Shown here: piece by piece, positions 3,515-37,303 of the stretch | Layout: every line of letters starts with the position of its first letter | Numbering within the stretch: position 1 is the first letter of the stretch | From: an uncultured Alphaproteobacteria bacterium | GTDB lineage: Bacteria > Pseudomonadota > Alphaproteobacteria > Rhodobacterales > Rhodobacteraceae | Direction: 5' to 3' | Length of the DNA: 64,000 nt | Assembly (NCBI GenBank): GCA_902537235.1 | Contig: CACBAO010000005.1 | Span: 19,951-83,950 of the forward strand | The notes under the pieces: model-generated | Told to the model about the DNA's origin: nothing | The model's database searches: none | The model's input: the letters and a program-made list of their open reading frames with translations, nothing else | Position numbers and translations under genes: made by a program

Positions 3515-3519
3515 TTTAA

Positions 3520-9150: not shown

Positions 9151-11313
9151 ATGAATAGTGAGGAAAGTTTTTTTGAAAGAGACTTGGTTCTTATCGGAGC
9201 GGGGCATACAAATTGTCTTTTTTTGAAAATGTGGGCAATGAAGAGTGATCCTTCTCTTCGAGTGACTCTAATAAATCCAGATCCTATTTCCTCTTATACC
9301 GGTATGCTACCTGCTCTAGTAGCTGGTTTATGTGCCAAATCAGATGCTCAAATAAATTTATTCAGTTTGTGTAGAGCTACAGAAACAAGATTAATTATCG
9401 ATACTGTTAAAAAAATCGATAAGAAAAAAAATCAAATTATGTGTAAGACAGGGAGGATTGTAAACTTTGATCTCCTATCCATAAATATTGGATCTAACTC
9501 CGTCCCTTTGATAAATGGGTTTAAAAAATTTGGATGCAGTGTTCGGCCTCTAGCTGCATTTCAAGAGCGTTGGGAAAACTTTTTGGAGTCCATTAATGAA
9601 AAATCGTCTCCGGTTATTTGTGTTGTAGGGGGAGGCCTAGCATCAATTGAGTTGGGTTTCGCAATGGATATTCGATTGAAAAAGACTGAATTAAAAGATT
9701 TTAAGATTAAAATTTTTGAAAGTGGTAAAGCTTTTGAAAAACTGAGTTTAAATCAGCAAAGATATTTGAAAACCAAAGCCAAACTACGAAAAATTGAAAT
9801 AATTGAAAATACTACAATAAAAGAAGTTTCAAATAATGGGTTAGTACAAAAAAACGGCAATTTTGTTCATGCAGATTTTATTATTTCTTGTATAGGACCT
9901 CAACCAAACGATTTGTTTAAAAAGTCAAAAATTGAAAATAAAGATGGATATGTTTGCGTCGACGAAACGCTAAGAGTTATAGGTTTTCAAAATGCGTTTG
10001 CAGTTGGTGATTGTGCACATTTCCCTTCTAAAGCTGTAGATAAGTCAGGAGTTTATGCAGTTAGGCAAGCACCAATTCTTTATAAAAATATCCTTAAGCT
10101 TTTTAAGAACAAGCAGCTAATTCGATTTAAACCTCAAAGTGATTATTTAAAGCTCATTGTCTATGAAGGTGATTCCGCGATTTTCCTTAGAAATGGGGTT
10201 GCCTTTTCAGCAAAATGGGTTTGGGCATTAAAAAGTTTTATTGATAAAAAGTTTATAAAGAATTTTAAAAAACTTAGTGAGATGGTCACTAAAAATATGG
10301 AAAACGCTCGAAGCAATAACCAAAAAATGCTTTGTGGTGGCTGTGGCTCGAAAGTCGGAAATGTTATTTTGGAGTCTTCGTTAAGGAAGTTAGCAGATCC
10401 TAGCTCAAAACATATTGTTAGTAAAATAGGAGATGACGCAGCAATTATAAAATTTAATTCCTTGTTTCAAGCTTTGACGACCGATCATCTGAGGTCATTT
10501 ACAAAGGATGCGTGGCTTCAAAGTAAGATAACGGCGATTCACGCTTTGGGAGATATTTGGGCAATGGGATCCGATCCTGAAATCGCTCTCACAAATATTA
10601 TTATTCCAGAGTCCTCCAATGACATACAAAAGCGAACAATCGAAGAAATTATAGATGGGGCAAATAGTGTTTTTGGTGCTGATGGAGTGAAGATAGTGGG
10701 TGGTCATACCTCTTTAGGAAAAGAGCTAGTAATCGGGTTCACGTTGGGAGGTTTTTCCAAAAACCAACCTAAGACTGTCGATAAGGCAAGTGTAGGTGAT
10801 CAAATAATATTAACAAAACCATTAGGCTCTGGGATTCTATTGGCAGGGGAAATGCGTTTTGAAGGTGAAGGGCAGGATCTAAAAAATCTTTTTGATGCAA
10901 TGTCTAAGTCACAAAGTTCTATCGCAAATGTGTTGAGGAAAGTTGCAAACTCGATGACGGACATCACTGGATTTGGCTTAGGTGGCCACCTTCTAAACAT
11001 AGTTTCAAAGTCTAACGTAGGAGCAAAACTATATTTGGATCAGATACCAGTATACCCTGGTGCCAATAATCTTATAGCCAAAGGTATTAGGTCTTCGATT
11101 TTTGAGAATAATTATATGTATTCTGAGAGAATGATTATTAAAACAACAGCGAATACAGATATCCTTTTTGATCCCCAAACATCCGGTCCATTACTTGCTA
11201 CCGTTCCGAAGAGCAAAGTAAAGGGTGTTATTACATCTGGTGAAAAGTTGGGTTTTGAGTGTAAAGTAATTGGCGAATTGGCAATTGGAAAGCCCTATAT
11301 TGAGGTTTTATAG
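9151..11313 (+). CDS. selD: fusion protein: FAD-dependent pyridine-nucleotide-disulfide (NDH-2-like) oxidoreductase domain plus selenide,water dikinase (selenophosphate synthetase)
   Basis: aa 1-380 carry two dinucleotide-binding motifs (LIGAGHTN, VVGGGLASIELG). aa 393-720 align along their length with SelD: CGGCGSK (nt 10333-10353, Cys type), DDAA, TTD, GDIWAMG, GGHT, LTKPLGSG, MTDITGFGLGGH and DPQTSGPL. Confidence 0.85.
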   Translation: MNSEESFFERDLVLIGAGHTNCLFLKMWAMKSDPSLRVTLINPDPISSYTGMLPALVAGLCAKSDAQINLFSLCRATETRLIIDTVKKIDKKKNQIMCKTGRIVNFDLLSINIGSNSVPLINGFKKFGCSVRPLAAFQERWENFLESINEKSSPVICVVGGGLASIELGFAMDIRLKKTELKDFKIKIFESGKAFEKLSLNQQRYLKTKAKLRKIEIIENTTIKEVSNNGLVQKNGNFVHADFIISCIGPQPNDLFKKSKIENKDGYVCVDETLRVIGFQNAFAVGDCAHFPSKAVDKSGVYAVRQAPILYKNILKLFKNKQLIRFKPQSDYLKLIVYEGDSAIFLRNGVAFSAKWVWALKSFIDKKFIKNFKKLSEMVTKNMENARSNNQKMLCGGCGSKVGNVILESSLRKLADPSSKHIVSKIGDDAAIIKFNSLFQALTTDHLRSFTKDAWLQSKITAIHALGDIWAMGSDPEIALTNIIIPESSNDIQKRTIEEIIDGANSVFGADGVKIVGGHTSLGKELVIGFTLGGFSKNQPKTVDKASVGDQIILTKPLGSGILLAGEMRFEGEGQDLKNLFDAMSKSQSSIANVLRKVANSMTDITGFGLGGHLLNIVSKSNVGAKLYLDQIPVYPGANNLIAKGIRSSIFENNYMYSERMIIKTTANTDILFDPQTSGPLLATVPKSKVKGVITSGEKLGFECKVIGELAIGKPYIEVL

Positions 11314-12372
11314 AGTTTTCATTCTATTATTTGCTGTTTTCAATATGCTATCAACGGTTAAACTAAGGCCCTTTCGAGATATGTCCTCTATTTCTATGGT
11401 AGCAAATACTTGTTTTTTCTTTCTTAAGAGTCCTCGTTCGTATCTGGGGTCATAGTGTTTTTCAATTAGTTGTTTTGCAAGTGCAATAAATTCTTTGTTT
11501 TTTGCCATTCTCAACCAACTCTCTACAACTTTATGCCCAGCTATTGTCGAAAGGCTCGTAATTTGTTTTTCTAATAAATCTAGATCAGTTGTTATTTCAG
11601 AATATTCTTCAACTAAAAATTGTGCCCTCTGTTCAACTGTAGCCGATATTTCAATTTGTGGAGAGTTTTTCATTAACTTCCAAAATTCTTTAGGTATATG
11701 CAAGTTTCCAATTTTATTAGATTCTGCTTCTACAAATATAGGTTCACCAGTTTTGAGGTTTTTTACTTTATCATAAATCAAAGTTTCGAATAATTTTTGA
11801 GATGGTTGTTTCTGACCTTGTGATCCAAATACTGACCCTTTATGATTAGCTAGGCTTTCCAGATCGATAGTTTGCCCCTGCCTCTCTTCTATCAAGTTAA
11901 GCAGTTTTGTTTTTGCGGTTCCTGTATTACCTGTTATTAGTATTAGAAAGTAATTTTCTATATTTTTATCCAGGAAATCATTGACATGTTTTCGGAATGA
12001 TTTATAGCCTCCATCCACTACTCCTACATCCCATCCTATTTGGTCAAGTATAGTTGCAAAGGCATATGATCGCTGTCCACCTCGCCAACAGTAGATTAAA
12101 GGAAGCCAATCTCGATGTTTTTCTCGAATATTCTCTTTTAAAAAATTCGAAATGTTTTTTGAGATAAGGGCAGCACCGAGTTTTTTTGCTTCAAACTTAC
12201 TATTTTGTTTATATATGGTGCCTACCATCTCACGCTCTTTATCGAAAAGAACCGGTAAATTAATTGCGCCAGGTATATGATCAACCTCATACTCGGATGG
12301 CGACCGAACATCTATTACATCATCGAGTTTTTTCAAGTCGATATCGGAAAAACTTATACGTTTAAATGCCAT
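11308..12372 (-). CDS. selU: tRNA 2-selenouridine synthase (rhodanese plus P-loop)
   Basis: The rhodanese domain has the active-site loop IYCWRGGQRS, and Walker A is ITGNTGTAKTKLL. Length is 354 aa. The stop codon interlocks with the selD stop (TTATAG, 11308-11313). Confidence 0.85.
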   Translation of the reverse strand: MAFKRISFSDIDLKKLDDVIDVRSPSEYEVDHIPGAINLPVLFDKEREMVGTIYKQNSKFEAKKLGAALISKNISNFLKENIREKHRDWLPLIYCWRGGQRSYAFATILDQIGWDVGVVDGGYKSFRKHVNDFLDKNIENYFLILITGNTGTAKTKLLNLIEERQGQTIDLESLANHKGSVFGSQGQKQPSQKLFETLIYDKVKNLKTGEPIFVEAESNKIGNLHIPKEFWKLMKNSPQIEISATVEQRAQFLVEEYSEITTDLDLLEKQITSLSTIAGHKVVESWLRMAKNKEFIALAKQLIEKHYDPRYERGLLRKKKQVFATIEIEDISRKGLSLTVDSILKTANNRMKTL

Positions 12373-17060: not shown

Positions 17061-17567
17061 ATGAACAATAAATTAGATTTAGAAAATTTACCAGGCGAAG
17101 CAGAAGTAAAGTTTACTTGCAATGGCCAAGCCGTTGGAAAAATGAGAAATGAACTTAAAGTAGATATGGTGTCTCCAATAGAGGAGACATTCCATTTGGC
17201 TACTGACGAAGGGTCTTTTCATGGAGGTGATGCTACTGCCCCACCGCCACTTGCTTTATTTATAGCAAGTCTTACTGGTTGCATAATGACACAAATTAGG
17301 GCGTTTTCTAAAAGAATGAAAATTGAAATAAACGATTTAAAGGTTGATAGCCGAATTATATGGAAATGGAAAAAACTCGATAATATTTATGAGACGGCTC
17401 CTCAAAGTTTCGAATTAGATGTATTCATAGAAAGCAATGAACCTTTAGAAAGAGTGAAAAATTTAATCGCGGCAGCTAAAAAGGGATGCTTTATTGAGCA
17501 AACTTTAAGTCAAAAAAATATTATTAACCATAAGTTAAGGGATGGTGACAACTGGGTTAATGTATGA
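17061..17567 (+). CDS. OsmC/Ohr family protein
   Basis: GGDATAPPPLALFIASLTGCIMTQIRAF and KKGCFIEQTL (two conserved Cys regions) are present. Confidence 0.75.
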   Translation: MNNKLDLENLPGEAEVKFTCNGQAVGKMRNELKVDMVSPIEETFHLATDEGSFHGGDATAPPPLALFIASLTGCIMTQIRAFSKRMKIEINDLKVDSRIIWKWKKLDNIYETAPQSFELDVFIESNEPLERVKNLIAAAKKGCFIEQTLSQKNIINHKLRDGDNWVNV

Positions 17568-17574: not shown

Positions 17575-19275
17575 TTAGGTTGGTAAAGCTCTTTTTATAA
17601 TTTCGTCAAAATTTGTATTTGAATTTAGAGTTCCAAAAGCTCCAGTCCAGTTGCCTCCAAGGCGACTACTACAAAAAGCTGAGGCTATTTCTTCATTACA
17701 ATTTTTCAAGAAAATAGAAGCCTGCATCAGTGTTGCTAATCGTTCTGTTATAGATCTTGATTTTATTTCTAAATCCTCTGGGTTCTTTAACTCGAGAAAT
17801 AAATTATCAACATTCAAATCATAGTAAGCATTTAATCCTCTCGCTTTCTCTAACTCGTTGAAAACTGAAGAAATAGCGTTTTTATCCTTTTGCATGGCCC
17901 TCAAAACATCGACACACATAACGTTACCACTTCCTTCCCAAATACTATTTAGAGGAGCTTCCCGATATAATCTAGGCATAATTGACTCTTCTATGTATCC
18001 TGGTCCACCATGACATTCCAAGGCCTCAAAAATCAGATACGGTGCTCTTTTAGTTATCCAATACTTACTCACAGTCGTGAATATTCGCGATATTGATTTT
18101 TCGTTTTCATCCTCTTCCTGACAATCAACTGACCTAGCTACCCTCATAGCGAGATTAGCTGCCGCGTCGCTTTCTAAAATCATATCTGCAATGACATTCT
18201 TCATAAGAGGTTGATCAATCAATTTTTTCTGGAAAGCCGTTCTATGGGTCGTATGGTGTAGGACCTGAACAACCGCTTGACGCATTAAAGACGCTGAGCT
18301 GACAGCACAGTAAATTCTGTTTCCTATAACCATATCGAGTATAGTCTTAATTCCCTTACCTTCTTCTCCAATCATTGTGCCAAACGTATCATCAAGCTCA
18401 ATTTCAGAGGATGCATTCGACCTATTTCCAAGCTTGTCTTTTAGTCTTTGGATGAAAAAATTATTTCGTTCCCCATCTGGTTTCCATCTTGGAACAAGAA
18501 AGCATGACAACCCCACATCAGTGTTAGCTAGCACAAGAAAGGCATCGCACATTGGGGCTGAACAAAAATACTTATGCCCTGTAAGAAGATATTCCGATCC
18601 ATTGCCAACACTTGAGGACACCGGTTTTGCTCGTGTAGAGTTGGCTCTAACATCTGATCCACCTTGTTTCTCAGTCATAAACATGCCTATTGTTCCACCC
18701 AATTTCTGATCAATGGGGATATCTCTATCGTCATACTCATTAGATAGTACTTTTGGTAGCCATTGAGCTTCTAAGTCTGGATTATGCTTCAGTGCTGGAA
18801 TAACAGAATACGTCATTGCCATTGGGCACATAACGCCTCCCTCAATCTGGCTAAACATATAAGTTAGTGCCATATGTGCGACCTGTGACCCTTCTTTTTT
18901 ATGGTTCCACGCAAAACTTGGGATTTCATTCTTTATAGCTACTCCCAAGAGGTGATGGTAAGAAGGATGATAATCAACGTAGTTAATCCTATTGCCATAT
19001 TGATCGAATGCCTTTAGTTCTGGCGGATTTTTATTTGCCTTCTCAGCATGATCAAACATTTCAGTGCAGCCCATCAAATGTCCAAACGCACTTAAATTTT
19101 TCTCCGCCCAACCAGCGCCTTCTCTATTAACAGCTTCTCTAAGATTTTTATCATTTTTCCATAAATCTTGATTGCCCATATATGGCGGCATGTTTTCAAC
19201 TTCATGGGTAGGTAATTGTTTAATTGGTCTAAGATGGTTCATATTATCATTCCATTTTATTAAGTGAAAGCACAC
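17575..19275 (-). CDS. AidB-like acyl-CoA dehydrogenase family flavoprotein
   Basis: 566 aa with an extended N-terminus (DLWKNDKNLREAV...PELKAFDQYGNRINYVDYHPSYHHL) as in AidB. The ACAD core shows MTEKQGGSD and IWEGSGNVMCVDVLR. Confidence 0.8.
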   Translation of the reverse strand: MCFHLIKWNDNMNHLRPIKQLPTHEVENMPPYMGNQDLWKNDKNLREAVNREGAGWAEKNLSAFGHLMGCTEMFDHAEKANKNPPELKAFDQYGNRINYVDYHPSYHHLLGVAIKNEIPSFAWNHKKEGSQVAHMALTYMFSQIEGGVMCPMAMTYSVIPALKHNPDLEAQWLPKVLSNEYDDRDIPIDQKLGGTIGMFMTEKQGGSDVRANSTRAKPVSSSVGNGSEYLLTGHKYFCSAPMCDAFLVLANTDVGLSCFLVPRWKPDGERNNFFIQRLKDKLGNRSNASSEIELDDTFGTMIGEEGKGIKTILDMVIGNRIYCAVSSASLMRQAVVQVLHHTTHRTAFQKKLIDQPLMKNVIADMILESDAAANLAMRVARSVDCQEEDENEKSISRIFTTVSKYWITKRAPYLIFEALECHGGPGYIEESIMPRLYREAPLNSIWEGSGNVMCVDVLRAMQKDKNAISSVFNELEKARGLNAYYDLNVDNLFLELKNPEDLEIKSRSITERLATLMQASIFLKNCNEEIASAFCSSRLGGNWTGAFGTLNSNTNFDEIIKRALPT

Positions 19276-20029
19276 TATTTATTCTTATGGTCCCGGGTGT
19301 TCTCACACTACAGTAAACGCCAAAATCCTGGTGGCCAAAACGTTCATTAAGTATACCTATGGTATCACAATTATGTTGGCCTGTCTTAGTATTAGTTTTT
19401 GTAGCGTTACATCGCTCAATTCTATCAACGACCTTTAACTCTACTTTATCAATTTTAATTAATTCACCAACCCAATCAAATTCAGTCCATGGCTTCCCGG
19501 TTCGTATCCATATATTTCCTCTAAACCTTTCAGGTTCCAAGCTAATCCCTGCTTTTTTAGAGAGGTCTTCTAGAGAGTCCAACGAATTGATAGAAATTGA
19601 CTGGAAAGGAGTGTCTGTGAGAGCTGTATCGGCTACGCAAACTAATTTTGTAGGTTTCGGAAATTTATCAGAACAAATAGGGAGCAACCAGTTCACGAAA
19701 GATCCTCTGTCAGTATGATCACTAAGGTCTAATGATATAGGTTTTAGCTCAGGATGTTTAAAAGTATATTTTTGATCATCAGTCCTTATTGACTCGACGG
19801 CTGATAGCGTAGGCATAATTGAGCCTCTGAGAAACTTAGTACACGGTTGCCACTCATTTGATAATTCGTCAAAAGAACTTTTTTCATGCACCAATGCCCA
19901 CATTCTGTCTAACGGAAGAGCTTTTCTTCTTTCTAACTTAATCTGTGTAATTTCTTCGCGACTTATCGATTTTATTGGATGCCGAAAAATCTTTTCGACT
20001 CTAAAAGGCAGGGTGCTTCGTAAATTCAT
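19247..20029 (-). CDS. MOSC domain protein (with MOSC N-terminal beta-barrel)
   Basis: RFRGNIWI, DRIERCNATKTN and a YcbX-like layout are present. The start shares TAATG with the upstream stop. Confidence 0.75.
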   Translation of the reverse strand: MNLRSTLPFRVEKIFRHPIKSISREEITQIKLERRKALPLDRMWALVHEKSSFDELSNEWQPCTKFLRGSIMPTLSAVESIRTDDQKYTFKHPELKPISLDLSDHTDRGSFVNWLLPICSDKFPKPTKLVCVADTALTDTPFQSISINSLDSLEDLSKKAGISLEPERFRGNIWIRTGKPWTEFDWVGELIKIDKVELKVVDRIERCNATKTNTKTGQHNCDTIGILNERFGHQDFGVYCSVRTPGTIRINSVLSLNKME

Positions 20030-21600
20030 TATGGCCTCATTGTTACAAGGTAAGGTTTTGGGCTTTTCAATCGGTAAGCTTTAAGCGCGAGTTCTAACCA
20101 AGATATTAGTCGTGGACGCGTTTCCCTAGGATCTATCAAATCATGGGCAGAAAAACCTTCTGCTCTTGGAATTGGTGATTGTCTTTGAGCTAATTGATCC
20201 TCAAGCTCCTTCTGTTTTTTTTCAGGATTTTTTGCCCTAGCAATTTCCTTTGAAAATGCAACGGCAACGCCACCTTCTACAGGTAAAGCACCACTTAAGG
20301 CACTGGGCCAAAGTAATGTGAAGCTATCAGGCCCATAGTGTGCAGTAGCGGCTACTCCAAAAGATTTATGCATATGCACAGACGCCCATGGCACTCTTGA
20401 TTGCATTATCGCGGATATTGCAGCAGTGCCAAATCTAATTGTACCACTTTTTTCTGACTCTGGACCAATCATGAATCCTGGTTCATCTACCAAACTGATA
20501 ATCGGAATATGGAAACTGTTACAAAAATCAGAAAATCTTTCTAATTTCTTTGAGGCACTGGTTGTCATCGCTCCTGCATAGAACATGCAGTCATTAGCGA
20601 TAACGCCAACTGATTGACCATTAAGTCTACCTAAGCCTGTTACGAGGCTTGGTCCATATTTTTTACCGATCTCGAAAAAGGTGCTTTGATCATCATTTAT
20701 ATCTAGTAGGGATGTGATGATCTTTCTTACGCTATATGGTCTACGTCTATCTTTTGGTATTATATCGATTAATAAATCATCACAACGATCCTCCTTGTCG
20801 TTAGTAGAAATAGAGTCTGGGAACGTCCAAGCATTATCTGGCACGAAGGAAAGGAATGTTTTTATTTGTTCAAAAGCGTCATCTTCTGTTTTTGCAAAGT
20901 TGTTTATTACTCCGCTTTTTAAGTGTACCTCAGGTCCACCGAGAGCTTCTTTCGTAACATCTATATTTAACGCTCTTTTTACGACTTTTGGCCCTGCTAT
21001 AAGCACTAACGAGCTCTCTGTCATTACTGAAAAGTGTGAAGCAACGAGACGAGATGCGGGCAGCCCGGCGACTGGTCCCAACGCAGCCGTTGCCACGGGG
21101 ACTTCTCCCAAAGTGTTAGCGAGCGAAATAAATCGTGAAGGCGTATATACGGCATCACTTGTAGGTCGATTACTTTTTTCTTGATTGGTGCCACCAACGG
21201 ATCCCCCAGCCCCTTCATGTAGTCGAATTAAAGGAACCTTGTATTTAAGTGCTAGCTCTTCTGTGTATATACTTTTCCTTAAACCGGCAGCATTTGGTGA
21301 TCCACCTTTTAAAGAAAAATCTTCTCCTCCTATGATCACTGGTCTTTTATTGATTTTCCCAAATCCTAGAATAAAGTTTCCGGGAGTAAATTTCTTGAGT
21401 GATCCATTATCATTATACTCCGAGTAACCAGCACTTTTACCAATTTCATTGAAAGATTTATTATCTAGTATCCTGTTGATCCTTTCTCTTATAGGTAGTC
21501 TGCCTTTTTTATACTGTAATTCTACAGCCTCTTTGCCACCCATTTGATCAGCAAAATTTCTCTTCTCATTAATTTCTTTTGCTTCTTTTTCCCAAGTCAA
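20029..21600 (-). CDS. acyl-CoA carboxylase carboxyltransferase (beta) subunit / acyl-CoA decarboxylase-like protein
   Basis: 523 aa two-lobed carboxyltransferase (IGGEDFSLKGGS, LHEGAGGS, ANDCMFYAGAM, PIISLVDEPGF). No biotin carboxylase or BCCP gene lies in the window. Confidence 0.85.
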   Translation of the reverse strand: MTWEKEAKEINEKRNFADQMGGKEAVELQYKKGRLPIRERINRILDNKSFNEIGKSAGYSEYNDNGSLKKFTPGNFILGFGKINKRPVIIGGEDFSLKGGSPNAAGLRKSIYTEELALKYKVPLIRLHEGAGGSVGGTNQEKSNRPTSDAVYTPSRFISLANTLGEVPVATAALGPVAGLPASRLVASHFSVMTESSLVLIAGPKVVKRALNIDVTKEALGGPEVHLKSGVINNFAKTEDDAFEQIKTFLSFVPDNAWTFPDSISTNDKEDRCDDLLIDIIPKDRRRPYSVRKIITSLLDINDDQSTFFEIGKKYGPSLVTGLGRLNGQSVGVIANDCMFYAGAMTTSASKKLERFSDFCNSFHIPIISLVDEPGFMIGPESEKSGTIRFGTAAISAIMQSRVPWASVHMHKSFGVAATAHYGPDSFTLLWPSALSGALPVEGGVAVAFSKEIARAKNPEKKQKELEDQLAQRQSPIPRAEGFSAHDLIDPRETRPRLISWLELALKAYRLKSPKPYLVTMRP

Positions 21601-21614
21601 TGTCTATCTCCAAT

Positions 21615-22514
21615 TTATTGTGTCTGGATTCCGTTAAGTTTCTCAACAAACTCTTTTTCGTTATAAAAATTCTTTTTACCGATCACAACAAATACAGACT
21701 CCTTTTCATTTTTTTCTGTTTTTTCGATTTTTAAAGTTAATCCATCATATTGGATTGTACATACTTCACCCTTTTTATTTTTAAAAAATCCTTTAGCTCT
21801 TTCGATATTATAAACTGGATCCCGCAAAAGTGTGCTTAGCGCCTCAGCATTCATTGTTCCAGTCGGTTTAATTGTTGAGGAAATAAATCCATGCTCCTGT
21901 TTTTTCTCTAAGTTTATTTTGTGACTAGGGCCAAAGTCTAGAAGCATATCTTCTTCTTCAATATATGCGTTTACCGTTTTAAGAAACTTTCGTATTTCAA
22001 AACGTTTTGATAGAGTGTCGATACAATTTAATAGCTCATCTTCTTTAAGCAAATCAGTTTTATTCAATACCAAGAGATCATGTTGCTCGATTTGTAAACT
22101 AATTGTATCACTGATATACAAGTCATTTAATTGTGACCTAAGTCGGGATGCGTCTGTTAACAACACCGTTCCATGAAATGACAGGAAGTCCATAAGCGAT
22201 ATTGTTTGTATAATTTTAGAAGGTAAAGCAATCCCGCTTGCCTCAAGCACAATATGATCTGGTAAAATCTCATTTGAATTCATACTCTCCAAAGTTTCTA
22301 TCAACTCATTTCCATAGCTACAACACACACATCCACCCGCGATGCTCAGAACGGAGTCAGTTCTAGCTTCAATTAAGGACTCATCAATGTTAACGTCACC
22401 AAAGTCATTTACCAGTAGAGCTATTTTTTTCTTAGTTGTCCTAAGTAAATTATTTATTAATGTCGTTTTACCTGTTCCAAGGTAACCGGAGATCAATGTC
22501 AGAGGAATACCCAC
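21615..22514 (-). CDS. COG0523 (CobW/YjiA/Nha3-type) G3E metallochaperone GTPase
   Basis: Walker A GYLGTGKTTLINNLL, metal motif GCVCCS, LNKTDL and a CobW_C-like C-terminal domain are present. Confidence 0.85.
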   Translation of the reverse strand: MGIPLTLISGYLGTGKTTLINNLLRTTKKKIALLVNDFGDVNIDESLIEARTDSVLSIAGGCVCCSYGNELIETLESMNSNEILPDHIVLEASGIALPSKIIQTISLMDFLSFHGTVLLTDASRLRSQLNDLYISDTISLQIEQHDLLVLNKTDLLKEDELLNCIDTLSKRFEIRKFLKTVNAYIEEEDMLLDFGPSHKINLEKKQEHGFISSTIKPTGTMNAEALSTLLRDPVYNIERAKGFFKNKKGEVCTIQYDGLTLKIEKTEKNEKESVFVVIGKKNFYNEKEFVEKLNGIQTQ

Positions 22515-22516
22515 AA

Positions 22517-24244
22517 TTACGAACTATTTTCGATAATATGCGGCTTGCCACCTTTAATCGTCCCTAAGATTTTTTGATCTTTAAATTTTATTTCATCAAT
22601 ATCAAAGGGGTCCTCTTCTAGGACGCAACAATCCGCTTTTTTACCCGTTTCTAGTGATCCTACTTCATGATCTATCTTAAGAGTAAACGCAGCTCCTAAA
22701 GTGATCGCATATAACGCTTCCATTTTATTAATTTTTTCATAATCCCCCAGAGTTCTTCCTGAAAATGTTAATCTATTCATAGCACACCAAGCTGTAAATA
22801 GTGGGCCAAGGGGAGTTACTGGGGCATCGGAGTGTATTGCCAAAGGGACTTTTTCTTGTAGTGCTGTTTTACAGGCATTCATTCGATGAGCTCTTTCTGG
22901 ACCAACCGTTAGGGAGTAATGTTCATCTCCCCAATAAAAATGGTGGTTAGAAAATAAGTTTGCACACATACCAAGCTTATGCATCCTTTTAAATTGAGCA
23001 GTTGATGCAAGCTGACAATGTTGCAAAGTAAATCTATGATCATTTTTAGGAAATTTAGCCAGAGCACCTTCCAGACAATCGAGAGCTAATTCTGTAGCCT
23101 CGTCCCCATTAGTGTGCGTATGTACTAATATATTATTTTCTAATGCAAGCTCATAGGCTTCTTGTATATGTTCAGGTGCTGTATACCACATGCCATTGGG
23201 AGCTCCATTATAATATCCAGGCCATTTAAGTCTAGCCGTGAAGCCTTGAATTGAGCCATCTGCAACAATTTTTATTGCACCTAGTCTTAAATTTTCCGTT
23301 GATTTTTGTTTGAGTTCTAAGACTTTGGGAATTAATTCTTTTGGGCTTATCCCCTGCATATATCGTAAAGAAACAATTCGAGCTGGAAAATCTGTTTCCG
23401 ATGTAACCTTTAGCATCATTTCAACAGCCTCATCTGTTTGAAGGTTCGCAAGGTCAGCAGCAGTAGTGACCCCAGCTCTGGCACAGATTTTTCCAAAGTT
23501 TCTTAGACCTTCTGAATCTCCTGAGAGCCAATCCTTGCCTAAGCCTACATGCCTAGTTACTAAAGCAATGGTTTCAGCCCCTCTTATCTCCCCAGATGGA
23601 AGACCATCTTCACCGAGAGGAAGGCCCTCATGATTTATGCCTGTTCTCAAAAATCCTGCCAGCTTTAAGCCTACTGAGTTTATATTGAGTTTATGTCCAG
23701 ATGCATGTAGTATTCCTATCGGTCTTTGGTCTGAAACCACATCTAGTATTTTTCTGTCTAACGCTTTGTCGTCAAAATAAATTGGGTCTAATCCCCATCC
23801 TGCTAATGGTGCGTTCGGGTCCAATAAGGTTTCATTCTCGTGTTTAAGTGTCTGAACAAGCTCTTTTACATTTTTAATGCCAAGGCTCATTGTTCCATCC
23901 GGCTTTTGCCTATCAAAATACCCACAATATAATTTACTCCACAATGCACCTTCAAACAAATGACTATGTCCTTCAACAAGACCCGGCATTAAAACATAAT
24001 TCTCAAAACTTTTATCCAGTTCGTACTTGCCCTCAGGTTTAATTGTATTGAGGTCTCCCACTTGAACAATTTTACCATCCAGAACACTCATGTATTGTGC
24101 TTCTGGATTTCTAGGGTTCATTGTAATTATTTTTTTTGCCTTAAAAATTTTTAACAAGAATAAACCTTTCAAAAAAAACTTCTGTTTATACGAAAGCTTG
24201 ATATCATTAATATTAAATGTGACTTTTGAATGATAATCAATCAA
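22517..24244 (-). CDS. amidohydrolase_3 (YtcJ-like) metal-dependent hydrolase
   Basis: PGLVEGHSHL, HTHTNGDEA, IHSDAPV and ADCCVLEEDP are present. The longest ORF starts at 24244, but an internal TTG near 24157 (MLKIFKAKKIITMN...) gives a more typical N-terminus. Confidence 0.85.
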   Translation of the reverse strand: MIDYHSKVTFNINDIKLSYKQKFFLKGLFLLKIFKAKKIITMNPRNPEAQYMSVLDGKIVQVGDLNTIKPEGKYELDKSFENYVLMPGLVEGHSHLFEGALWSKLYCGYFDRQKPDGTMSLGIKNVKELVQTLKHENETLLDPNAPLAGWGLDPIYFDDKALDRKILDVVSDQRPIGILHASGHKLNINSVGLKLAGFLRTGINHEGLPLGEDGLPSGEIRGAETIALVTRHVGLGKDWLSGDSEGLRNFGKICARAGVTTAADLANLQTDEAVEMMLKVTSETDFPARIVSLRYMQGISPKELIPKVLELKQKSTENLRLGAIKIVADGSIQGFTARLKWPGYYNGAPNGMWYTAPEHIQEAYELALENNILVHTHTNGDEATELALDCLEGALAKFPKNDHRFTLQHCQLASTAQFKRMHKLGMCANLFSNHHFYWGDEHYSLTVGPERAHRMNACKTALQEKVPLAIHSDAPVTPLGPLFTAWCAMNRLTFSGRTLGDYEKINKMEALYAITLGAAFTLKIDHEVGSLETGKKADCCVLEEDPFDIDEIKFKDQKILGTIKGGKPHIIENSS

Positions 24245-24344
24245 ATGTTTCTATTGCAAATTAGTTTACCTTAAGTCAATCTAATCATAGGGGGCGTTTA
24301 GTGAAAATCGGGCAAAAATTTCAATTAACTAGAAAGGTCGAGAA

Positions 24345-25919
24345 ATGAATAAACATTTTTTAAAAACGTTACTTCTCACTGCTACTCTAATTTTTACGTC
24401 ATTAGGCGTATGTTTTGCAGAGCCGAAAAAGGGTGGTACTCTGATAGCTGCTGTTGGGAATAGCCCACGACATTTAAATCCAGCTGTTCAATCAGGAATT
24501 GTGACTGGGTTTCCGGGCGCACAACTCTTTGCAACACCAATTCGATATGACAATAATTGGGAACCACAGCCTTATCTTGCTGAGTCATGGGAAATAAGCG
24601 ATGGTGGAAAAACAGTTAGACTTAATCTTGTAAAAGATGCTGTGTTTCACGATGGAGTTCCTATTAAATCTAGTGACGTAAAGTTCTCCTTGGAAACAAT
24701 TAAAAAGAACCATCCCTTTAAAACCATGTTTGCTCCTGTTGTATCGGTCGAAACACCTGACGAGCATACAGCCATTTTAAAATTATCATCTCCACACCCC
24801 GCTTTAATGTTAGCCATGTCATCACAATTGATGGCTATAATACCTGAGCATGTTTATGGAGATGGTCAAGATCCAAAAACACATCCACAAAACTCTGAAA
24901 ATGTTGTTGGATCAGGTCCCTTTAAGCTCGTTGAATTTAAATCAGGTGAGCATATCATCTTGGAAAGATTTGATGACTTTTTTATAGATGGGAGACCATA
25001 CCTAGATAAGATGGTTCTTAAAATTATAAAAGATCCAGCAACCAGAACTATAGGGCTTGAAAATGGCGAAATTGATTTTTATGCCTTCGAAAATGTGGCT
25101 AGAAACATTGTTCGATTGAAAAAGAACGATAACCTGACAGTAACGCCTGATGGATATGCGGCCATTGGACCGATCGACTGGTTAGCTTTCAATACAAAAA
25201 CTGGAAAAACGGCTGACGTGAATGTTAGACGCGCTATCGCTTATGCAATAGACAGAAACTTCATTCTGAAAGCTATTATGCTTGGTGTTGCCGATGAGGC
25301 TCGAACTGGTATTCATCCTGGAAGTCCTTTTTATGAGCCGAATGTGGAGCCATATAATCTAGATATTGATAAGGCAAACAAAATACTTGATGATGCCGGT
25401 TATAAAAAGGGTAGTGATGGTATGCGGTTTGGATTGACAGTCGACTTTGGTTGGCCAGGGCTAAAACCAAACGCCGAATATACAAAGGCGGCACTCAAGA
25501 AAATAGGTATAGACGTAACCGTAAGAGCATCTGCCGACTTTCCAACATGGGCAAAGACTGTTAGCAACCATAATTTTGATCTAACCTGGGATACCGTTTT
25601 TAATTGGGGAGATCCTGTTATAGGTGTTCACAGAACCTATCAGACCTCTAATATAAAAAAGGGAGTTATCTGGTCTAACACTCAACAATATAGTAATCCA
25701 AAAGTGGATGCTATAATGGAGAAGGCTGGAGTAGAAAACGATATGGATAAGCGAAAAGCTCTATATTCAGAGTTACAAAAAATGCTGGCAAACGACTTGC
25801 CTGTATATTGGACAAATACTCTCCCTTATCATACCATTTACAGCAAGAAGGTTGGCAATCCTCCTATGGGAATTTGGGCAACCAGCTCTCCAATGGATAT
25901 GACATATATCAAAGATTAA
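24345..25919 (+). CDS. ABC transporter substrate-binding protein, family 5 (peptide/nickel/opine type)
   Basis: It has a signal peptide and is 524 aa. PKKGGTLIAAVGNSPRHLNP and RRAIAYAIDR are present. Confidence 0.85.
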   Translation: MNKHFLKTLLLTATLIFTSLGVCFAEPKKGGTLIAAVGNSPRHLNPAVQSGIVTGFPGAQLFATPIRYDNNWEPQPYLAESWEISDGGKTVRLNLVKDAVFHDGVPIKSSDVKFSLETIKKNHPFKTMFAPVVSVETPDEHTAILKLSSPHPALMLAMSSQLMAIIPEHVYGDGQDPKTHPQNSENVVGSGPFKLVEFKSGEHIILERFDDFFIDGRPYLDKMVLKIIKDPATRTIGLENGEIDFYAFENVARNIVRLKKNDNLTVTPDGYAAIGPIDWLAFNTKTGKTADVNVRRAIAYAIDRNFILKAIMLGVADEARTGIHPGSPFYEPNVEPYNLDIDKANKILDDAGYKKGSDGMRFGLTVDFGWPGLKPNAEYTKAALKKIGIDVTVRASADFPTWAKTVSNHNFDLTWDTVFNWGDPVIGVHRTYQTSNIKKGVIWSNTQQYSNPKVDAIMEKAGVENDMDKRKALYSELQKMLANDLPVYWTNTLPYHTIYSKKVGNPPMGIWATSSPMDMTYIKD

Positions 25920-25928
25920 ACTATAATG

Positions 25929-25959
25929 ATGAGAAGGGGCATAAGTTGCCCCTTCTCAT
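25929..25959 (+). terminator. perfect 12-bp hairpin after the binding-protein gene (partial terminator or mRNA-stabilising element)
   Basis: ATGAGAAGGGGC (25929-25940) pairs with GCCCCTTCTCAT (25948-25959), with loop ATAAGTT. Only TTT follows, so it is not a classic strong terminator. Confidence 0.45.
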
Positions 25960-25989
25960 TTTCCAATAAACTATTTCAGTCATTTATAA

Positions 25990-26964
25990 ATGCCATTTTT
26001 TGTTTCACTGATTAGGCGCCTCGTTTCCATGCTCTTGGTTTTGCTTGTTGTAGTCGTCTTAAACTTTCTCATGCTGCATTTAGCTCCCGGTGATATTGCA
26101 GACACAATCGCTCAAACAATGGGGGGTGCTGACGAGCAAGATATGGCTGAATTGAGGAAGCAGTATGGGCTTGACCAACCATTTTTTATTCAGTTGTTTA
26201 ACTATGTTGTTAGGGTTGCTTTATTGGATTTTGGACATTCTCACTTTTACAATTTACCAGTATTTGACTTGATAATGGAGAGATTTCCTGCCACTTTATT
26301 ATTAGTTTTTTCAGCACAGATATTGTCTTTATTTGTAGGCATACTTTTAGGGGTATACGCTGCTCAAAACCCTAATGGACTATCAAGTCTTTTTGTAAAT
26401 ATGTTTTCTCTATTTGGTTACGCAGCTCCTGTATTTTGGACTGGAATTCTTTTATTGATTGCGTTCTCACTCCACATTCCTATTTTTCCAGTCTCAGGAA
26501 TGAGGGATATAACAATTGAAAGCGGTAATTTCTTTGTTCATTTCTTTGATGTACTTAGACACCTATTTTTACCTATGATAACACTGGCCTCTATATTTTT
26601 CGCCTATTATTCGCGTCTTTGTAGAGCGAGTATGTTAGAAGTACTGGGCGCGGACTTTGTTCGAACTGCTAAAGCGAAAGGACTATCCAAAAAGGACGTA
26701 TTACTGAAGCATGCACTAAAGAATTCTTTATCCCCAGTTATAACTTTTGCTGGACTGAGCTTTTCTGCCGTTGTCTCAGGGGCCATTCTCGTAGAAACGG
26801 TTTACAGTTGGCCAGGTTTAGGGACATTAGCATTTAATTCAATTATATCTAGGGATACGCCGGTTTTACTAGGCATCCTGATTTTCTCAACGCTAATGGT
26901 AACTGTAGGAAATCTTTTAACAGATTTAACGTTAAAAGCTTTAGACCCAAGAATAAAAATTTAA
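25990..26964 (+). CDS. ABC transporter permease (DppB/OppB type)
   Basis: The C-terminus is LTDLTLKALDPRIK, and there is an EAA-like loop FVRTAKAKGLSKKDVLLKHALKNSL. Confidence 0.9.
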   Translation: MPFFVSLIRRLVSMLLVLLVVVVLNFLMLHLAPGDIADTIAQTMGGADEQDMAELRKQYGLDQPFFIQLFNYVVRVALLDFGHSHFYNLPVFDLIMERFPATLLLVFSAQILSLFVGILLGVYAAQNPNGLSSLFVNMFSLFGYAAPVFWTGILLLIAFSLHIPIFPVSGMRDITIESGNFFVHFFDVLRHLFLPMITLASIFFAYYSRLCRASMLEVLGADFVRTAKAKGLSKKDVLLKHALKNSLSPVITFAGLSFSAVVSGAILVETVYSWPGLGTLAFNSIISRDTPVLLGILIFSTLMVTVGNLLTDLTLKALDPRIKI

Positions 26965-26973
26965 GGTTTCAGA

Positions 26974-27846
26974 ATGTTAGAAAATGAAGAAATTGAAGAA
27001 CCTACAATCAAGCCTGTTAAAGAAATTTTTCAGACATTCTTCAAGAGTTACTCAGCAGTTACAGGACTGATTATTCTTATTGGTATCGCAGTGATGGGCT
27101 TTATAGGACCAATATTTTATCCTACTGACCCCTTTGATATGGTATGGATGCCATTTTCGCCTCCAGGAGCCGATGGGTTTCTGTTAGGAACAGATTATTT
27201 AGGTCGTGATATCTTATCCCAAATTATCAACGGTGCACGCGTTTCGATAGCAATAGGTTTTTCTGCGGCTTTGGTTTCGTGTTTTATAGGGGTGGGTATA
27301 GGCTCATTCGCTGGGTTTTATGGCGGTTGGGTCGAAGAAACATTAATGAGAATAACTGAGTTTTTTCAAGTTTTACCAACCTTATTATTTGCTATGGTAA
27401 TCGTGGCGCTATTTGGCTCATCAGTACTTTCTATAACTCTAGCGATAGGAGCAGTTAGCTGGGCTAGTGTTGCTAGAATTACAAGATCAGAGTTTTTAAG
27501 AATAAAGGAGCTAGACTTTGTCTTAGCCTCACGCTCCTCTGGGAGCAATAATATGGCTTTAATTTTCAAAGTTATTTTACCCAACGCGGCAGCGCCAATA
27601 ATTGTACAATCAGCATTGTTGGTAGGAGCGGCAATTACATTTGAGGCAGGCTTAGCTTTTCTAGGTTTGTCAGACCCAAATGTCATAAGTTGGGGTCAGG
27701 TGATTGGATCTAACAGAGTGTATATTCTTGATGCAACATATACTGTTACATTTCCAGGAGTAGCAATTTTTATAACAGTGCTCGCTATATCTCTTGTAGG
27801 TGATGGTCTTAATGATGCGTTAAACCCAAAACTTAGGTCAAGGTAA
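26974..27846 (+). CDS. ABC transporter permease (DppC/OppC type)
   Basis: LLGTDYLGRDILSQII, VLASRSSGSNNMALIFKVILPN and GDGLNDALNPKLR are present. Confidence 0.9.
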   Translation: MLENEEIEEPTIKPVKEIFQTFFKSYSAVTGLIILIGIAVMGFIGPIFYPTDPFDMVWMPFSPPGADGFLLGTDYLGRDILSQIINGARVSIAIGFSAALVSCFIGVGIGSFAGFYGGWVEETLMRITEFFQVLPTLLFAMVIVALFGSSVLSITLAIGAVSWASVARITRSEFLRIKELDFVLASRSSGSNNMALIFKVILPNAAAPIIVQSALLVGAAITFEAGLAFLGLSDPNVISWGQVIGSNRVYILDATYTVTFPGVAIFITVLAISLVGDGLNDALNPKLRSR

Positions 27847-29648
27847 TGGAAGACCTAGTTTCAATAAATAATCTGAATATAGAGGCAAGGACAAGAGCCG
27901 GCACGCTAAAAGTGGTAAATGATCTCTCTTTTACGATAAAAAAAAGTGAGACTTTGTGTGTTGTCGGAGAGTCTGGATGTGGAAAATCGGTAACAGCATT
28001 GTCCTTGATGAGCTTATTACCTGAGGGAATATTAAACGTTTCGTCAGGAGATATCTTATTCGACAATACTAACCTAGCTCAATTATCAGAGGCAGAGATT
28101 GAGGGTATAAGAGGCAATGACATTTCAATGATATTTCAGGAGCCGATGACTTCTCTCAATCCTCTTTTTACAGTTGGAGAACAGGTTTCAGAAGTTATCA
28201 GACGGCATAAAAATCTCAATAAAGAAAAAGCATGGGTGAGTGCAGTAGAATTACTAGATGCTGTAAAAATTCCTAATCCAGATAAAAGAGCTTTTGATTA
28301 TCCTTTTCAGCTTTCTGGTGGACAACGACAAAGAGTTATGATCGCAATTGCGTTGGCGTGTCAGCCAAAAATCTTGATCGCGGATGAGCCAACAACAGCA
28401 TTAGATGTGACCATTCAAGCAGAAATACTTGCTTTGATTAATATGCTCAAACAAGAAACAGGTACTGCAGTAATGTTTATTACGCACGACATGGCGGTTG
28501 TAGCCCAAATGGCGGATCGTGTTGTTGTTATGCATCCAGGTAAAAAAGTCGAAGAGGGGACAGTACATGAGATTTTTAATAATCCTCAGCATGAGTACAC
28601 GAAGTCCCTCTTAGCGGCAGTTCCAAAACTCGGAGAGATGGCGAGCAAGAAATACCCTGAACCCATGCGGTTAGTAGGAGAGAAAAAGACAAAGGCCCTA
28701 AAACCTATTGTTGGCACAAATGAGCCCCTACTTGAAGTGAATAATTTGGTAACCCGCTACCCGGTCAAAGGGGGTGTATTGAGACGAACGGTGGCACGTG
28801 TTCACGCTGTTGAAGACGTATCTTTTACTATCATGAAAGGAAAGACACTTTCGCTTGTCGGTGAATCAGGGTGTGGTAAGTCAACGGTGGGACGCTCACT
28901 CATTCGATTGGTAGAGCCTACATCAGGGGATGTGAATTTAGACGGTCAGAATATACTATCACTTAATCAAAAGGATATGCGGGAAGCCCGTAGTAATATC
29001 CAGATGGTCTTTCAAGATCCTTTCTCATCATTAAATCCGCAACGACCACTTTTTGATCAAGTAGCGGAGCCGTTGCGTAATTATGGGACGGTTAAGCGTG
29101 AAATATTGCAAGAGAAGATTGGCGATCTCTTTGATCGTGTAAAATTACCACGAAGTTTTATGCAGCGCTATCCACATCAACTTTCGGGTGGTCAGCGTCA
29201 GCGGATAGCAATTGCACGTGCGCTAGCGCTTAACCCTAAGCTTATCATAGCAGATGAAGCAGTGAGTGCATTGGATGTATCGGTGCAAGCTCAAGTCTTA
29301 AACTTAATGATGGAACTCCAGGTTGATTTGGGTCTTTCCTTTTTATTCATCAGCCATGATATGGCGGTTGTTGAGCGGGTAAGCCATGATGTTGGTGTTA
29401 TGTACTTAGGACGCTTGGTAGAGATCGGTCCTAGGCAAGCTATTTTTCGTAATCCACAACATCCTTATACACAGGATTTATTAAAAGCTGTACCTATTGC
29501 GGATCCGGATAAGAGGAAGTCCGAAAGAGATCTAAACTTTAAACCGCTTCCATCACCTATTCATGATTTGAACTATAAGGCTGAACCATCTGTATATAGA
29601 AAAGTGGCTAAAGACCACTATGTGTTAACAACGGATTGTGGGTATTAA
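27846..29648 (+). CDS. fused double-NBD ABC ATPase (DppD-DppF / GsiA-like)
   Basis: Two Walker A motifs (GESGCGKS twice), two LSGGQRQR signatures and oligopeptide-type C-terminal regions. The start overlaps the permease stop. Confidence 0.9.
28400..29648 (+). repeat. copy A of a ~1.25-kb intragenomic duplicate shared by the two fused ABC ATPase genes (partner ~55176-56424, constant offset 26776 nt, no indels)
   Basis: Compared by eye: 29217-29636 is base-for-base identical to 55993-56412 (420 nt). Upstream, the copies differ at scattered, mostly third-codon positions. The 5' ~550 nt of the two genes are only distantly related. Confidence 0.9.
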
Positions 29649-29664: not shown

Positions 29665-30651
29665 GTGGATATAATGCAGAGTATGTTTAATAACATCAAT
29701 CGGGCTCGTGAAGTATTACAAGGACAAATTGTAAATACGCCAACGCTCAAACTGAATGAGGATGATATTCAAGAGATTCTTCCTCATAATGCTGATGTAT
29801 CTATAAAGCTGGAATTATTTCAGCAAACGGGCTCGTTTAAGGCGAGAGGTGTGGCTATCGGACTGGAAACTCTAGAGGAAGATAAAAAAGCTCAAGGTAT
29901 TGTAACCGTCACGGGAGGAAATCATGGCATCGCTACCGCTTGGGGTGCAAGTCAATACAATATTTCGGCAAAAATTATTATGCCAAAGACTGCAGACCCA
30001 TTTAGAATTGATAAATGCCGTAGCCTTGGCGCTCAAGTAATACTTGCTGAAAATGTTGATGATGCCTTTGCAAAATTAGATGAAATTGAAAAGGATGAAA
30101 ATCGTTTTGTGCTTCACCCATTTAATCAAGAAAACATGATAATTGGTTCAGCTACTTGTTGTGCTGAGATTATAGATCAGATGGGCGATATTGATATATT
30201 AATTATTCCAATCGGTGGAGGCGGACTGATAGGTGGTATGGCGCACTATCTTGAACAGATTAATGCGTCCGTTGAATTATTAGGGGTGGAGCCTACGGGA
30301 GCGGATAGTTTCGCACAAAGCTTGGAAAATGATAGTGCAGTAAGAATCAATAAAGTGAACACAATAGCCGACAGCTTAGGCGCTCCAATGGCCATGGACT
30401 TTTCTTTCAACATCGCAAAAAAGAGAGTAAATCAAGTTGAAAAAGTTACTGATAATGAAATACGCAGAGCAATGATTACCATGAGAGATAAGCTTGGATT
30501 TATTGTTGAACCTGCCTGTGCTACCTCTTTAGCTGGACTGTTAGAGCGATATAAAAAGAAATGTGAGGGTAAAAAAGTTGGAATAATTGCATGTGGCTCA
30601 AATATTTCATTCGAAAGATATAATGAAATATTAAAAGACTATAAAGACTAA
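29665..30651 (+). CDS. PLP-dependent serine/threonine dehydratase family enzyme (no ACT domain; could be a dehydratase or racemase)
   Basis: The PLP lysine motif SFKARG, GGNHG and a GGGGL glycine loop are present. Length is 328 aa. The start is GTG 29665 or ATG 29674. Confidence 0.8.
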   Translation: MDIMQSMFNNINRAREVLQGQIVNTPTLKLNEDDIQEILPHNADVSIKLELFQQTGSFKARGVAIGLETLEEDKKAQGIVTVTGGNHGIATAWGASQYNISAKIIMPKTADPFRIDKCRSLGAQVILAENVDDAFAKLDEIEKDENRFVLHPFNQENMIIGSATCCAEIIDQMGDIDILIIPIGGGGLIGGMAHYLEQINASVELLGVEPTGADSFAQSLENDSAVRINKVNTIADSLGAPMAMDFSFNIAKKRVNQVEKVTDNEIRRAMITMRDKLGFIVEPACATSLAGLLERYKKKCEGKKVGIIACGSNISFERYNEILKDYKD

Positions 30652-37149: not shown

Positions 37150-37226
37150 GTTTTGATTATACTTTATTAAATAAAGATAAACCCTATAGGACTTCGGTCT
37201 GATTTTATGATAGTCTTATTCCTAGC

Positions 37227-37303
37227 GGTGACGTAGCTCAGCTGGATAGAGCACCAGATTTCGGCTCTGGGGGTCGAGGGTTCGAATCCTTCCGTCATCG
37301 CCA
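37227..37303 (+). tRNA. tRNA-Arg (anticodon UCG), CCA encoded
   Basis: Folded by hand. Acceptor GGTGACG/CGTCATC, D arm GCTC-AGCTGGATA-GAGC (A20 present) and anticodon arm CCAGA-TTTCGGC-TCTGG (anticodon TCG at 37261-37263). Variable loop GGGTC, T arm GAGGG-TTCGAAT-CCTTC, discriminator G, then CCA. Confidence 0.85.

Follow-up and report, generated by a model that had tools for sequence, protein, structure and literature searches.

Here we report that positions 21615-29648 of a 64,000-nucleotide stretch of DNA (hereafter the window) are likely to represent an N-acetyltaurine utilisation locus of the naa type, carried by an abundant, uncultured and streamlined marine alphaproteobacterium. In this reading an amidohydrolase (NaaS) and a COG0523 GTPase (NaaT) are encoded on the minus strand, an ATP-binding cassette (ABC) importer is encoded divergently from them, and three genes downstream of the pair are lineage-specific. 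The assignment draws on homology, synteny, phylogenetic placement and the conservation of signature residues. An initial annotation, made from the letters of the window, had rightly anticipated the uptake and hydrolysis of an amide-linked nitrogen compound, but had taken the gene combination for an undescribed pathway; importer, hydrolase and GTPase instead correspond to the published naa cluster (PMC4334477), and a match to a characterised cluster is what that annotation itself had named as speaking against its view. What appeared to be a new pathway would thus become a correctly named locus, and a very abundant uncultured marine alphaproteobacterium would carry the machinery for N-acetyltaurine use. 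The core features are as follows.

21615-22514, minus strand: naaT homologue, COG0523/G3E GTPase, putative NaaS metallochaperone (Pfam cobW, PF02492, 138.2 bits)
22517-24157 (longest open reading frame to 24244), minus strand: naaS homologue, metal-dependent amidohydrolase (Pfam Amidohydro_3, 203.7 bits)
24158-24344: divergent naaS/naaA promoter region of 187 nucleotides (nt), holding no open reading frame
24345-25919, plus strand: naaA homologue, family-5 periplasmic substrate-binding protein (SBP_bac_5, 279 bits)
25990-26964 and 26974-27846, plus strand: naaB and naaB' homologues, ABC permeases (BPD_transp_1 with OppC_N and BPD_transp_1_N)
27846-29648, plus strand: naaC-naaC' homologue, fused double ATP-binding protein of 600 amino acids (two ABC_tran and two oligo_HPY stretches)

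Homology and synteny of the core genes

In Ruegeria pomeroyi DSS-3 the naa genes comprise SPO0657 (naaT), SPO0658 (naaS, N-acetyltaurine amidohydrolase), SPO0659 (naaR) and SPO0660-0664 (naaABB'CC') (PMC4334477). Their assignment is based on functional characterisation in Cupriavidus necator (PMC13335735), whose purified NaaS is the basis of the N-acetyltaurine function (cited in PMC13335735 and PMC8027193), and the transporter has been reported as experimentally verified (PMC4809877, PMC8027193). N-acetyltaurine, which contains carbon, nitrogen and sulfur, derives from diatoms and picoeukaryotes (PMC9870897, PMC8027193), and phytoplankton exometabolites induce naaS (PMC9870897). The window resembles the R. 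pomeroyi locus in that naaS precedes naaT and the two diverge from a family-5 ABC importer of five functions, and in the lengths of the proteins, which are nearly equal. The two loci differ in that naaR lies between the two units in R. pomeroyi, whereas the window has no LysR gene; that the ATPase genes are separate there (350 and 332 amino acids) but fused into the single 600-residue protein here; and that naaT is followed by a convergent dnaE there but by carboxyltransferase, MOSC and AidB-like genes here. A pyridoxal phosphate (PLP)-dependent enzyme encoded after the importer is likewise a feature of the window.

The window amidohydrolase aligned without gaps over 535 residues, at 57% identity, with the R. 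pomeroyi NaaS (SPO0658) cluster, a member of which (P0241; AAV93966.1, Q5LVP2) bears the database name "N-acetyltaurine amidohydrolase". It was 45% identical to the C. necator copy, taken here and in all C. necator comparisons from another strain than H16, and the R. pomeroyi and C. necator proteins are themselves just 49% identical. In a neighbour-joining tree the window NaaS fell inside the clade spanned by these two references, on a relatively long branch and within an alphaproteobacterial NaaS clade that had the betaproteobacterial clade as its sister; a distant outgroup was formed by other Amidohydro_3-GTPase pairs (28% identity). Among 107 family-invariant columns, each at least 97% conserved among 179 NaaS-family members, the window protein keeps 105, so that its two deviations compare with a 95th percentile of 4.1 in the family and with 30-43 in the outgroup, and the candidate metal ligands H64, H66, K296, H346, H348, H380, H442 and D444 were invariant in all of the sequences compared (196/196). 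The protein is probably an N-acetyltaurine amidohydrolase, its substrate being suggested by the purified C. necator enzyme together with the R. pomeroyi annotation. Identities as N-substituted formamide deformylase, phenylurea hydrolase, molinate hydrolase or D-aminoacylase were rejected in favour of NaaS, the matches in PDB being weak and partial (no more than 92 bits, reached with the uncharacterised 3ICJ; molinate hydrolase and phenylurea hydrolase B gave about 36-40 bits); no solved structure for NaaS-NaaT was among these sequence matches. A naaS gene is also present in Delftia acidovorans.

The similarity extends to the importer: the window NaaA shows 62% identity and 78% positives to R. 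pomeroyi NaaA over the full protein (524 vs 524 amino acids), and NaaA orthologues with 60-73% identity adjoin naaS in about 40 of 83 loci, many of them in Alphaproteobacteria. The window permeases are 62-72% identical to permeases beside naaS in other Alphaproteobacteria, and the fused ATPase is 52-61% identical to counterparts at naaS-adjacent loci. In two genomes of the window's clade, AG-422-M03 and AG-895-K23 (L004 and L013/L104), naaS, naaT and the carboxyltransferase, MOSC and AidB-like genes are kept and the NaaABC-type importer is swapped; its replacement in L004 and L013 is a co-directional family-5 ABC importer with a binding protein that is 28% identical, and the NaaS proteins there are 87% identical to that of the window.

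Locus surveys were seeded separately with the GTPase, the carboxyltransferase and the NaaS family, and the last of these gave a census of 185 loci, 177 of them with sufficient downstream sequence. An orthologous family-5 ABC importer was found at 78 census loci and a sodium:solute symporter at 39. The strain of C. necator that we compared has the order LysR, DUF3311, sodium:solute symporter (SSF), Amidohydro_3 and cobW; the pair of amidohydrolase and COG0523 GTPase is common to this locus and the window, whereas uptake there involves the symporter and DUF3311 and regulation a LysR protein, and the window has an ABC importer and no LysR gene. We take this betaproteobacterial layout of LysR, DUF3311, symporter, amidohydrolase and GTPase to be that of naaROPST, which Denger, Lehmann and Cook reportedly described in 2011 in C. 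necator H16, where NaaS is said to have been purified. Betaproteobacterial naaST genes are moreover often flanked by the taurine-pathway genes xsc and pta (pta in 21 loci), another difference from the window, where neither was found. A DAO-family amine oxidoreductase, dependent on flavin adenine dinucleotide and of about 470 amino acids, accompanies naaST in 47 loci, frequently at a distance of about 2.5 kb on the downstream side, and a MocR-type regulator does so in 19 (L106-L263); these may be taurine-oxidising and regulatory partners, respectively, and are unnamed in the naa literature that we surveyed.

Together the core proteins suggest a simple route. The ABC importer, composed of NaaA, NaaB, NaaB' and the fused NaaC-C', would take up N-acetyltaurine, an algal sulfonate exometabolite; NaaS, with its HxH / Lys / His / His / Asp metal site, would cleave the amide to acetate and taurine; and NaaT may activate NaaS by delivering the catalytic metal through its CxCC motif and GTP hydrolysis. 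Urease and binuclear amidohydrolases share an HxH / carbamylated-Lys / His / His / Asp site. The metal-loading step is proposed because of the conserved coupling of NaaS and NaaT and by the paradigm of G3E GTPases. The same reaction, N-acetyltaurine to acetate and taurine, has been assigned in mammals to PTER (PMC11374699), which belongs to the same amidohydrolase superfamily but to the phosphotriesterase-related family rather than Amidohydro_3, and has no COG0523 partner; the function shared by PTER and NaaS arose independently within the superfamily.

Several observations weigh against the assignment of the locus to naa. No LysR regulator (NaaR) is encoded beside it, and no LysR-family match occurred among the scanned window proteins. 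Family scans of the same proteins, on which the absences of genes from the window given below are also based, did not find tpa, xsc, pta, tauXY or tauD in the 64 kb. The window NaaS is only 45% identical to the biochemically characterised C. necator lineage, and the neighbour-joining tree carries no bootstrap support. Finally, about 15 genomes of the clade, counted at species level, share an invariant five-gene minus-strand block with variable flanks on both sides, which is also the pattern expected from a functional five-gene unit.

The lack of NaaR seems to be shared by some other Alphaproteobacteria, since at several loci the binding-protein gene and naaS are apparently too close together to leave room for such a gene. 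The divergent region of the window, which is conserved in the clade, holds two palindrome-like motifs, TGATATCA (24199-24206) and TGATAATCA (24231-24239), 32 nt apart, each of which has two occurrences within the 64-kb window, and an intergenic alignment of 10 genomes of the clade showed both to be kept in 9. A sigma-70-like promoter match lies on the minus strand at 24259-24230. The two motifs could be the operator of a regulator that replaces NaaR.

The NaaT homologue and its putative client

The window NaaT is 33% identical to R. pomeroyi NaaT over its full length and 42% identical to the C. necator copy across the G-domain. It has the Walker A motif GYLGTGKTT and the CxCC motif in the form GCVCCS, and CxCC is kept in the proteins of both reference organisms. 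The protein is short (299 amino acids), with a short C-terminal domain and no His-rich stretch; CobW_C (PF07683) scored 20.9 bits, slightly below the gathering cut-off of 22, as against 56 bits for the C. necator copy. We considered and rejected the identities CobW, PRK11537 and ZigA, for which the scores were 102.8, 97.3 and 80 bits against NCBIfam cut-offs of 332.1, 361 and 600, and, together with CobW and ZigA on the same cut-offs, YjiA, which is the closest solved structure. A weak match to a "CobW-related selenoprotein" model was also seen (61 bits, cut-off 180).

The GTPase gene stands immediately 3' of the hydrolase gene in 163 of the 177 NaaS-family loci with sufficient downstream sequence, and the junction of the Amidohydro_3 and GTPase genes in relatives measures 2, 0, -4 or -11 nt. 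This adjacency was seen in Alpha-, Beta- and Gammaproteobacteria, in Acidimicrobiia and in Actinomycetes, including Brevibacterium. This translationally coupled arrangement, kept at so many loci across several classes and phyla, strongly supports the suggestion of the initial annotation that the amidohydrolase is the likely metallation client of the GTPase. A putative role of this kind is already present in earlier literature, where NaaT is annotated as "metallochaperone, putative" (PMC4334477). A full-text search and the accessible part of a 2024 Chem Rev review yielded no study of NaaT as a COG0523 metallochaperone, and that part of the review, which concerns bacterial metallostasis, describes few insights into bacterial COG0523 clients beyond those of CobW and Nha3.

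As paradigms of a G3E GTPase dedicated to a single client, the same 2024 review offers UreG, which serves urease, and Nha3, which serves Fe-type nitrile hydratase. NaaS-NaaT resembles both in that a G3E/COG0523 GTPase gene lies beside the gene of one hydrolytic metalloenzyme, for the metallation of which it is presumably needed; it differs in client family and in GTPase subfamily, and metal transfer by NaaT is putative. A likeness exists also to COG0523 "subgroup 4" of Haas et al. 2009 (PMC2770081), in which COG0523 genes cluster with genes of metal-dependent hydrolases in Proteobacteria, although the context there (UraA, UbiX/UbiD, AtzB, CoxLSM) is unlike that of naa. With a simple soluble client, a colorimetric-type assay and adjacency at 163 of 177 loci, NaaS-NaaT would be a practical and tractable test system for the metallation of COG0523 clients.

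NaaT changes far faster than its neighbours. Between AG-435-J13 (L071/L105) and the window, NaaT is 51% identical, as compared with 80% for NaaS, 91% for the carboxyltransferase, 94% for the AidB-like protein and 90% for the binding protein, and family-wide the identities are 31-50% for NaaT as against 56-61% for NaaS.

Downstream genes and alternative readings

All five open reading frames of the minus-strand block (17575-24244) were recovered at the coordinates first given, and Pfam and NCBIfam scores agreed with their initial family calls, as did domain matches for the divergent family-5 importer and the PLP-dependent enzyme. The features beyond the core are these.

17575-19242, minus strand: AidB-like flavoprotein of acyl-CoA dehydrogenase fold (AidB_N 191.8 bits, with acyl-CoA dehydrogenase middle and C-terminal domains)
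19247-20029, minus strand: MOSC_N plus MOSC protein of 260 amino acids (Pfam MOSC 46.8 bits, MOSC_N 31.2 bits)
20029-21600, minus strand: carboxyltransferase resembling acyl-CoA carboxylase beta subunits (Carboxyl_trans, PF01039, 272 bits, residues 29-514)
29665-30651, plus strand: PLP-dependent enzyme resembling serine/threonine dehydratases (PALP, 240.5 bits)

Inspection of the sequence bore out most of the junctions first described: the amidohydrolase and GTPase genes meet as TAA-tt-GTG with a gap of 2 nt, the GTPase and carboxyltransferase genes are 14 nt apart, with GGAG followed by a TTG start, and the carboxyltransferase and MOSC genes have 1 nt in common in TAATG. The 29-nt overlap of the MOSC and AidB-like genes, in contrast, is an artefact of the longest open reading frame, which begins with GTG, since an ATG at 19242 falls 4 nt past the MOSC stop and the proteins encoded by relatives have 552-555 amino acids; the AidB-like gene most likely starts at this ATG. 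Similarly, the amidohydrolase most likely starts at the TTG at 24157, behind GAAAGG, rather than at 24244: the NaaS alignment opens at residue 4, and the upstream extension is missing in one relative. From the end of the AidB-like gene to that of the amidohydrolase, the gaps within the block are then 4, -1, 14 and 2 nt.

Such spacing is uninformative on its own, because tight packing is the default in this genome. The window has a G+C content of 36-42% and is about 94% coding; its same-strand gaps have a median of 9 nt and are at most 16 nt in 20 of 31 pairs, and genes as unrelated in function as those for DctM, a cyclase and OsmC are packed equally tightly. Promoter- and terminator-like matches within the block were in no excess over shuffled controls, and the gap between naaT and the carboxyltransferase gene leaves no space for a terminator. 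The block had been described as almost certainly one transcript; with genes co-oriented, gaps of at most 14 nt and terminator signals not above the shuffled controls, co-transcription of all five is plausible, and the extreme compactness of the genome makes it probable for the three downstream genes, but the spacing itself is typical of the genome. These three genes serve as a warning that, in streamlined genomes, close packing is no evidence of a shared function.

The carboxyltransferase scored 275 bits against the mmdA model (cut-off 999), and its best solved relatives are the beta subunit of propionyl-CoA carboxylase and the 12S transcarboxylase, at about 240 bits. By these scores it is a divergent acyl-CoA carboxylase beta subunit; an identity as PccB or MccB, with a role for example in acetate assimilation, was rejected, the scores lying far below orthology. 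Neither a biotin carboxylase nor a biotin carrier protein turned up in the window, as had been stated from the outset, and the biotin subunits with which the enzyme works are probably encoded in another part of the genome. Its orthologues with 61-66% identity, in Porticoccaceae, Parvibaculum, Tepidicaulis, PS1 and OCS116, are solitary among unrelated housekeeping neighbours (TypA, inositol monophosphatase, an alpha/beta hydrolase, ABC exporters), and no conserved module of carboxyltransferase, MOSC and AidB-like genes was seen around them. Homologues with 41% identity, from a plasmid search, adjoin genes for a biotin carrier protein and/or a biotin carboxylase, and for a CoA-transferase.

The MOSC protein is without the ferredoxin domain of YcbX. 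It has the RC..T motif around the conserved Cys (IERCNATK), and it gave no NCBIfam match, no PDB sequence match and no close characterised relative. Homologues with 23-29% identity occur on plasmids, with unrelated neighbours at the one locus examined, and no link of the plasmid homologues of either the MOSC protein or the carboxyltransferase to naa appeared in the neighbourhoods examined. The AidB-like protein scored 502.9 bits against PRK11561 (NF008594; cut-off 545), 411 bits against the structure of Escherichia coli AidB (3DJL) and 453 bits against 5EZ3, by which it would rank as a near-orthologue of AidB. The gene for the PLP-dependent enzyme begins 16 nt past the importer; its product stays below all NCBIfam equivalog cut-offs, and it stands beside naa only in the window's clade.

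The five genes, in the same order, are present in 13-15 genomes (counted at species level) that belong to a single clade of uncultured marine Alphaproteobacteria, represented by single-cell (AG-...) and metagenome genomes, and were found together nowhere outside this clade among the GTPase-seeded loci. In the NaaS-family census, a carboxyltransferase and a MOSC gene stood beside naaST at only two of 185 loci, both of the window's clade. On these comparative grounds we regard the genes for the carboxyltransferase, the MOSC protein and the AidB-like protein as additions to the operon that are specific to this lineage, with no demonstrable role in the naa pathway. To our knowledge, the known catabolism of N-acetyltaurine or taurine involves none of their products. 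The seven-function, self-contained route that was originally envisaged is without comparative support, because these genes and that of the PLP enzyme are not kept with the core outside the clade and the neighbours of carboxyltransferase orthologues elsewhere are unrelated.

It is nonetheless necessary to weigh the view that all five genes belong with the importer and PLP enzyme to a single, dedicated and so far undescribed catabolic route, in which the downstream enzymes process the products of the amidohydrolase. The co-oriented genes, with their gaps of 4, -1, 14 and 2 nt and no terminator-like signal above background, would suit such a route, as would the block remaining intact in every genome of the clade that could be checked (about 15 at species level) while its flanks vary, the importer being replaced in L004 and L013 and OsmC and tripartite ATP-independent periplasmic (TRAP) transporter genes coming and going. 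Yet the spacing is the default of the genome, the 185 loci surveyed include no carboxyltransferase or MOSC gene outside the window's clade, the closest carboxyltransferase orthologues elsewhere lie among housekeeping genes, the single MOSC homologue locus examined has unrelated neighbours, and acetate and taurine need none of the three enzyme types in known pathways. We therefore regard a dedicated route as unlikely. A functional link of the three genes to naaST is retained as an outside chance, because within the clade they are always attached to naaST and the flanks vary; and it is equally doubtful that in this clade, abundant in the oligotrophic ocean, their products extend the naaST pathway by processing a non-acetyl acyl group or the sulfonate product, which would amount to an undescribed N-acyl-sulfonate route.

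A related possibility is that the NaaS-like enzyme and importer of this clade have shifted to another N-acyl aminosulfonate or an N-acyl amino acid, the released acyl group being activated by an AMP-forming ligase encoded nearby (30877-32547) and passed on to the AidB-like dehydrogenase and the carboxyltransferase. The relatively long branch of the window NaaS, the failure to find NaaR and the taurine genes in the window, the occurrence of an acyl-CoA ligase, an acyl-CoA dehydrogenase-fold protein and an acyl-CoA carboxyltransferase within 15 kb, and the pairing of the operon with a different ABC importer (binding protein 28% identical) in two species of the clade would all be compatible with such a shift. 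Against it, the 105 of 107 family-invariant positions kept in the window NaaS are within the normal spread of the family, and the ligase gene is on the opposite strand, outside the block. The binding protein moreover points to the same ligand, with an identity of 62% to NaaA and of 60-73% to naaS-adjacent homologues in many Alphaproteobacteria. A shift of substrate seems to us quite improbable. More remote still is the idea that the GTPase merely adjoins the hydrolase and is itself a CobW or a COG0523 protein of general zinc homeostasis, like ZigA, YeiR or YciC: its best NCBIfam matches are indeed CobW, PRK11537 and ZigA, and its closest solved structure is YjiA, but those matches are weak and far below their cut-offs, no zinc-uptake, Zur or cobalamin genes were found nearby in the window, and overlapping or 2-nt junctions with naaS recur through the 163 of 177 loci from Alpha-, Beta- and Gammaproteobacteria, Acidimicrobiia and Actinomycetes. 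The assignment of the core genes to naa, with the three downstream genes as additions of the lineage, is the reading that we prefer.

Other loci in the window

Selenium-related genes are grouped at 9151-12372 and 17061-17567. They encode an oxidoreductase-SelD fusion (selD model 253 bits, cut-off 125), the tRNA 2-selenouridine synthase MnmH (421 bits) and a member of the "OsmC-related (seleno)protein" family (NF041052, 120 bits against a cut-off of 95); the gene for this OsmC-like protein directly abuts the AidB-like gene. A second G3E GTPase, MeaB, is encoded at 779-4686, tightly packed (gaps of 23, 1 and 5 nt) with genes for a nitroreductase, a family III CoA-transferase and an acyl-CoA dehydrogenase, and no methylmalonyl-CoA mutase was visible in the window.

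At 32648-38827, subunits of a formate dehydrogenase linked to nicotinamide adenine dinucleotide (a Nuo51-like and a molybdopterin protein) are encoded beside an MttB-family methyltransferase, which is a single uninterrupted open reading frame of 507 amino acids, an arrangement consistent with quaternary-amine demethylation feeding one-carbon oxidation. The region 41538-49163 encodes a hybrid histidine kinase of 2068 amino acids with at least five PAS_7 and two receiver domains, followed by a stand-alone receiver protein and then by a fusion of a receiver with an adenylate/guanylate cyclase. A second family-5 ABC importer, similarly arranged, lies at 50755-57586, with its binding protein and permeases on the minus strand and its fused ATPase on the plus strand. 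The ATPase gene overlaps the next one, which encodes an M20 deacylase resembling ArgE/acetylornithine deacetylase (NF005710, 480 bits against a cut-off of 412), and from these family matches the region looks like another module for the import and deacylation of N-acyl compounds.

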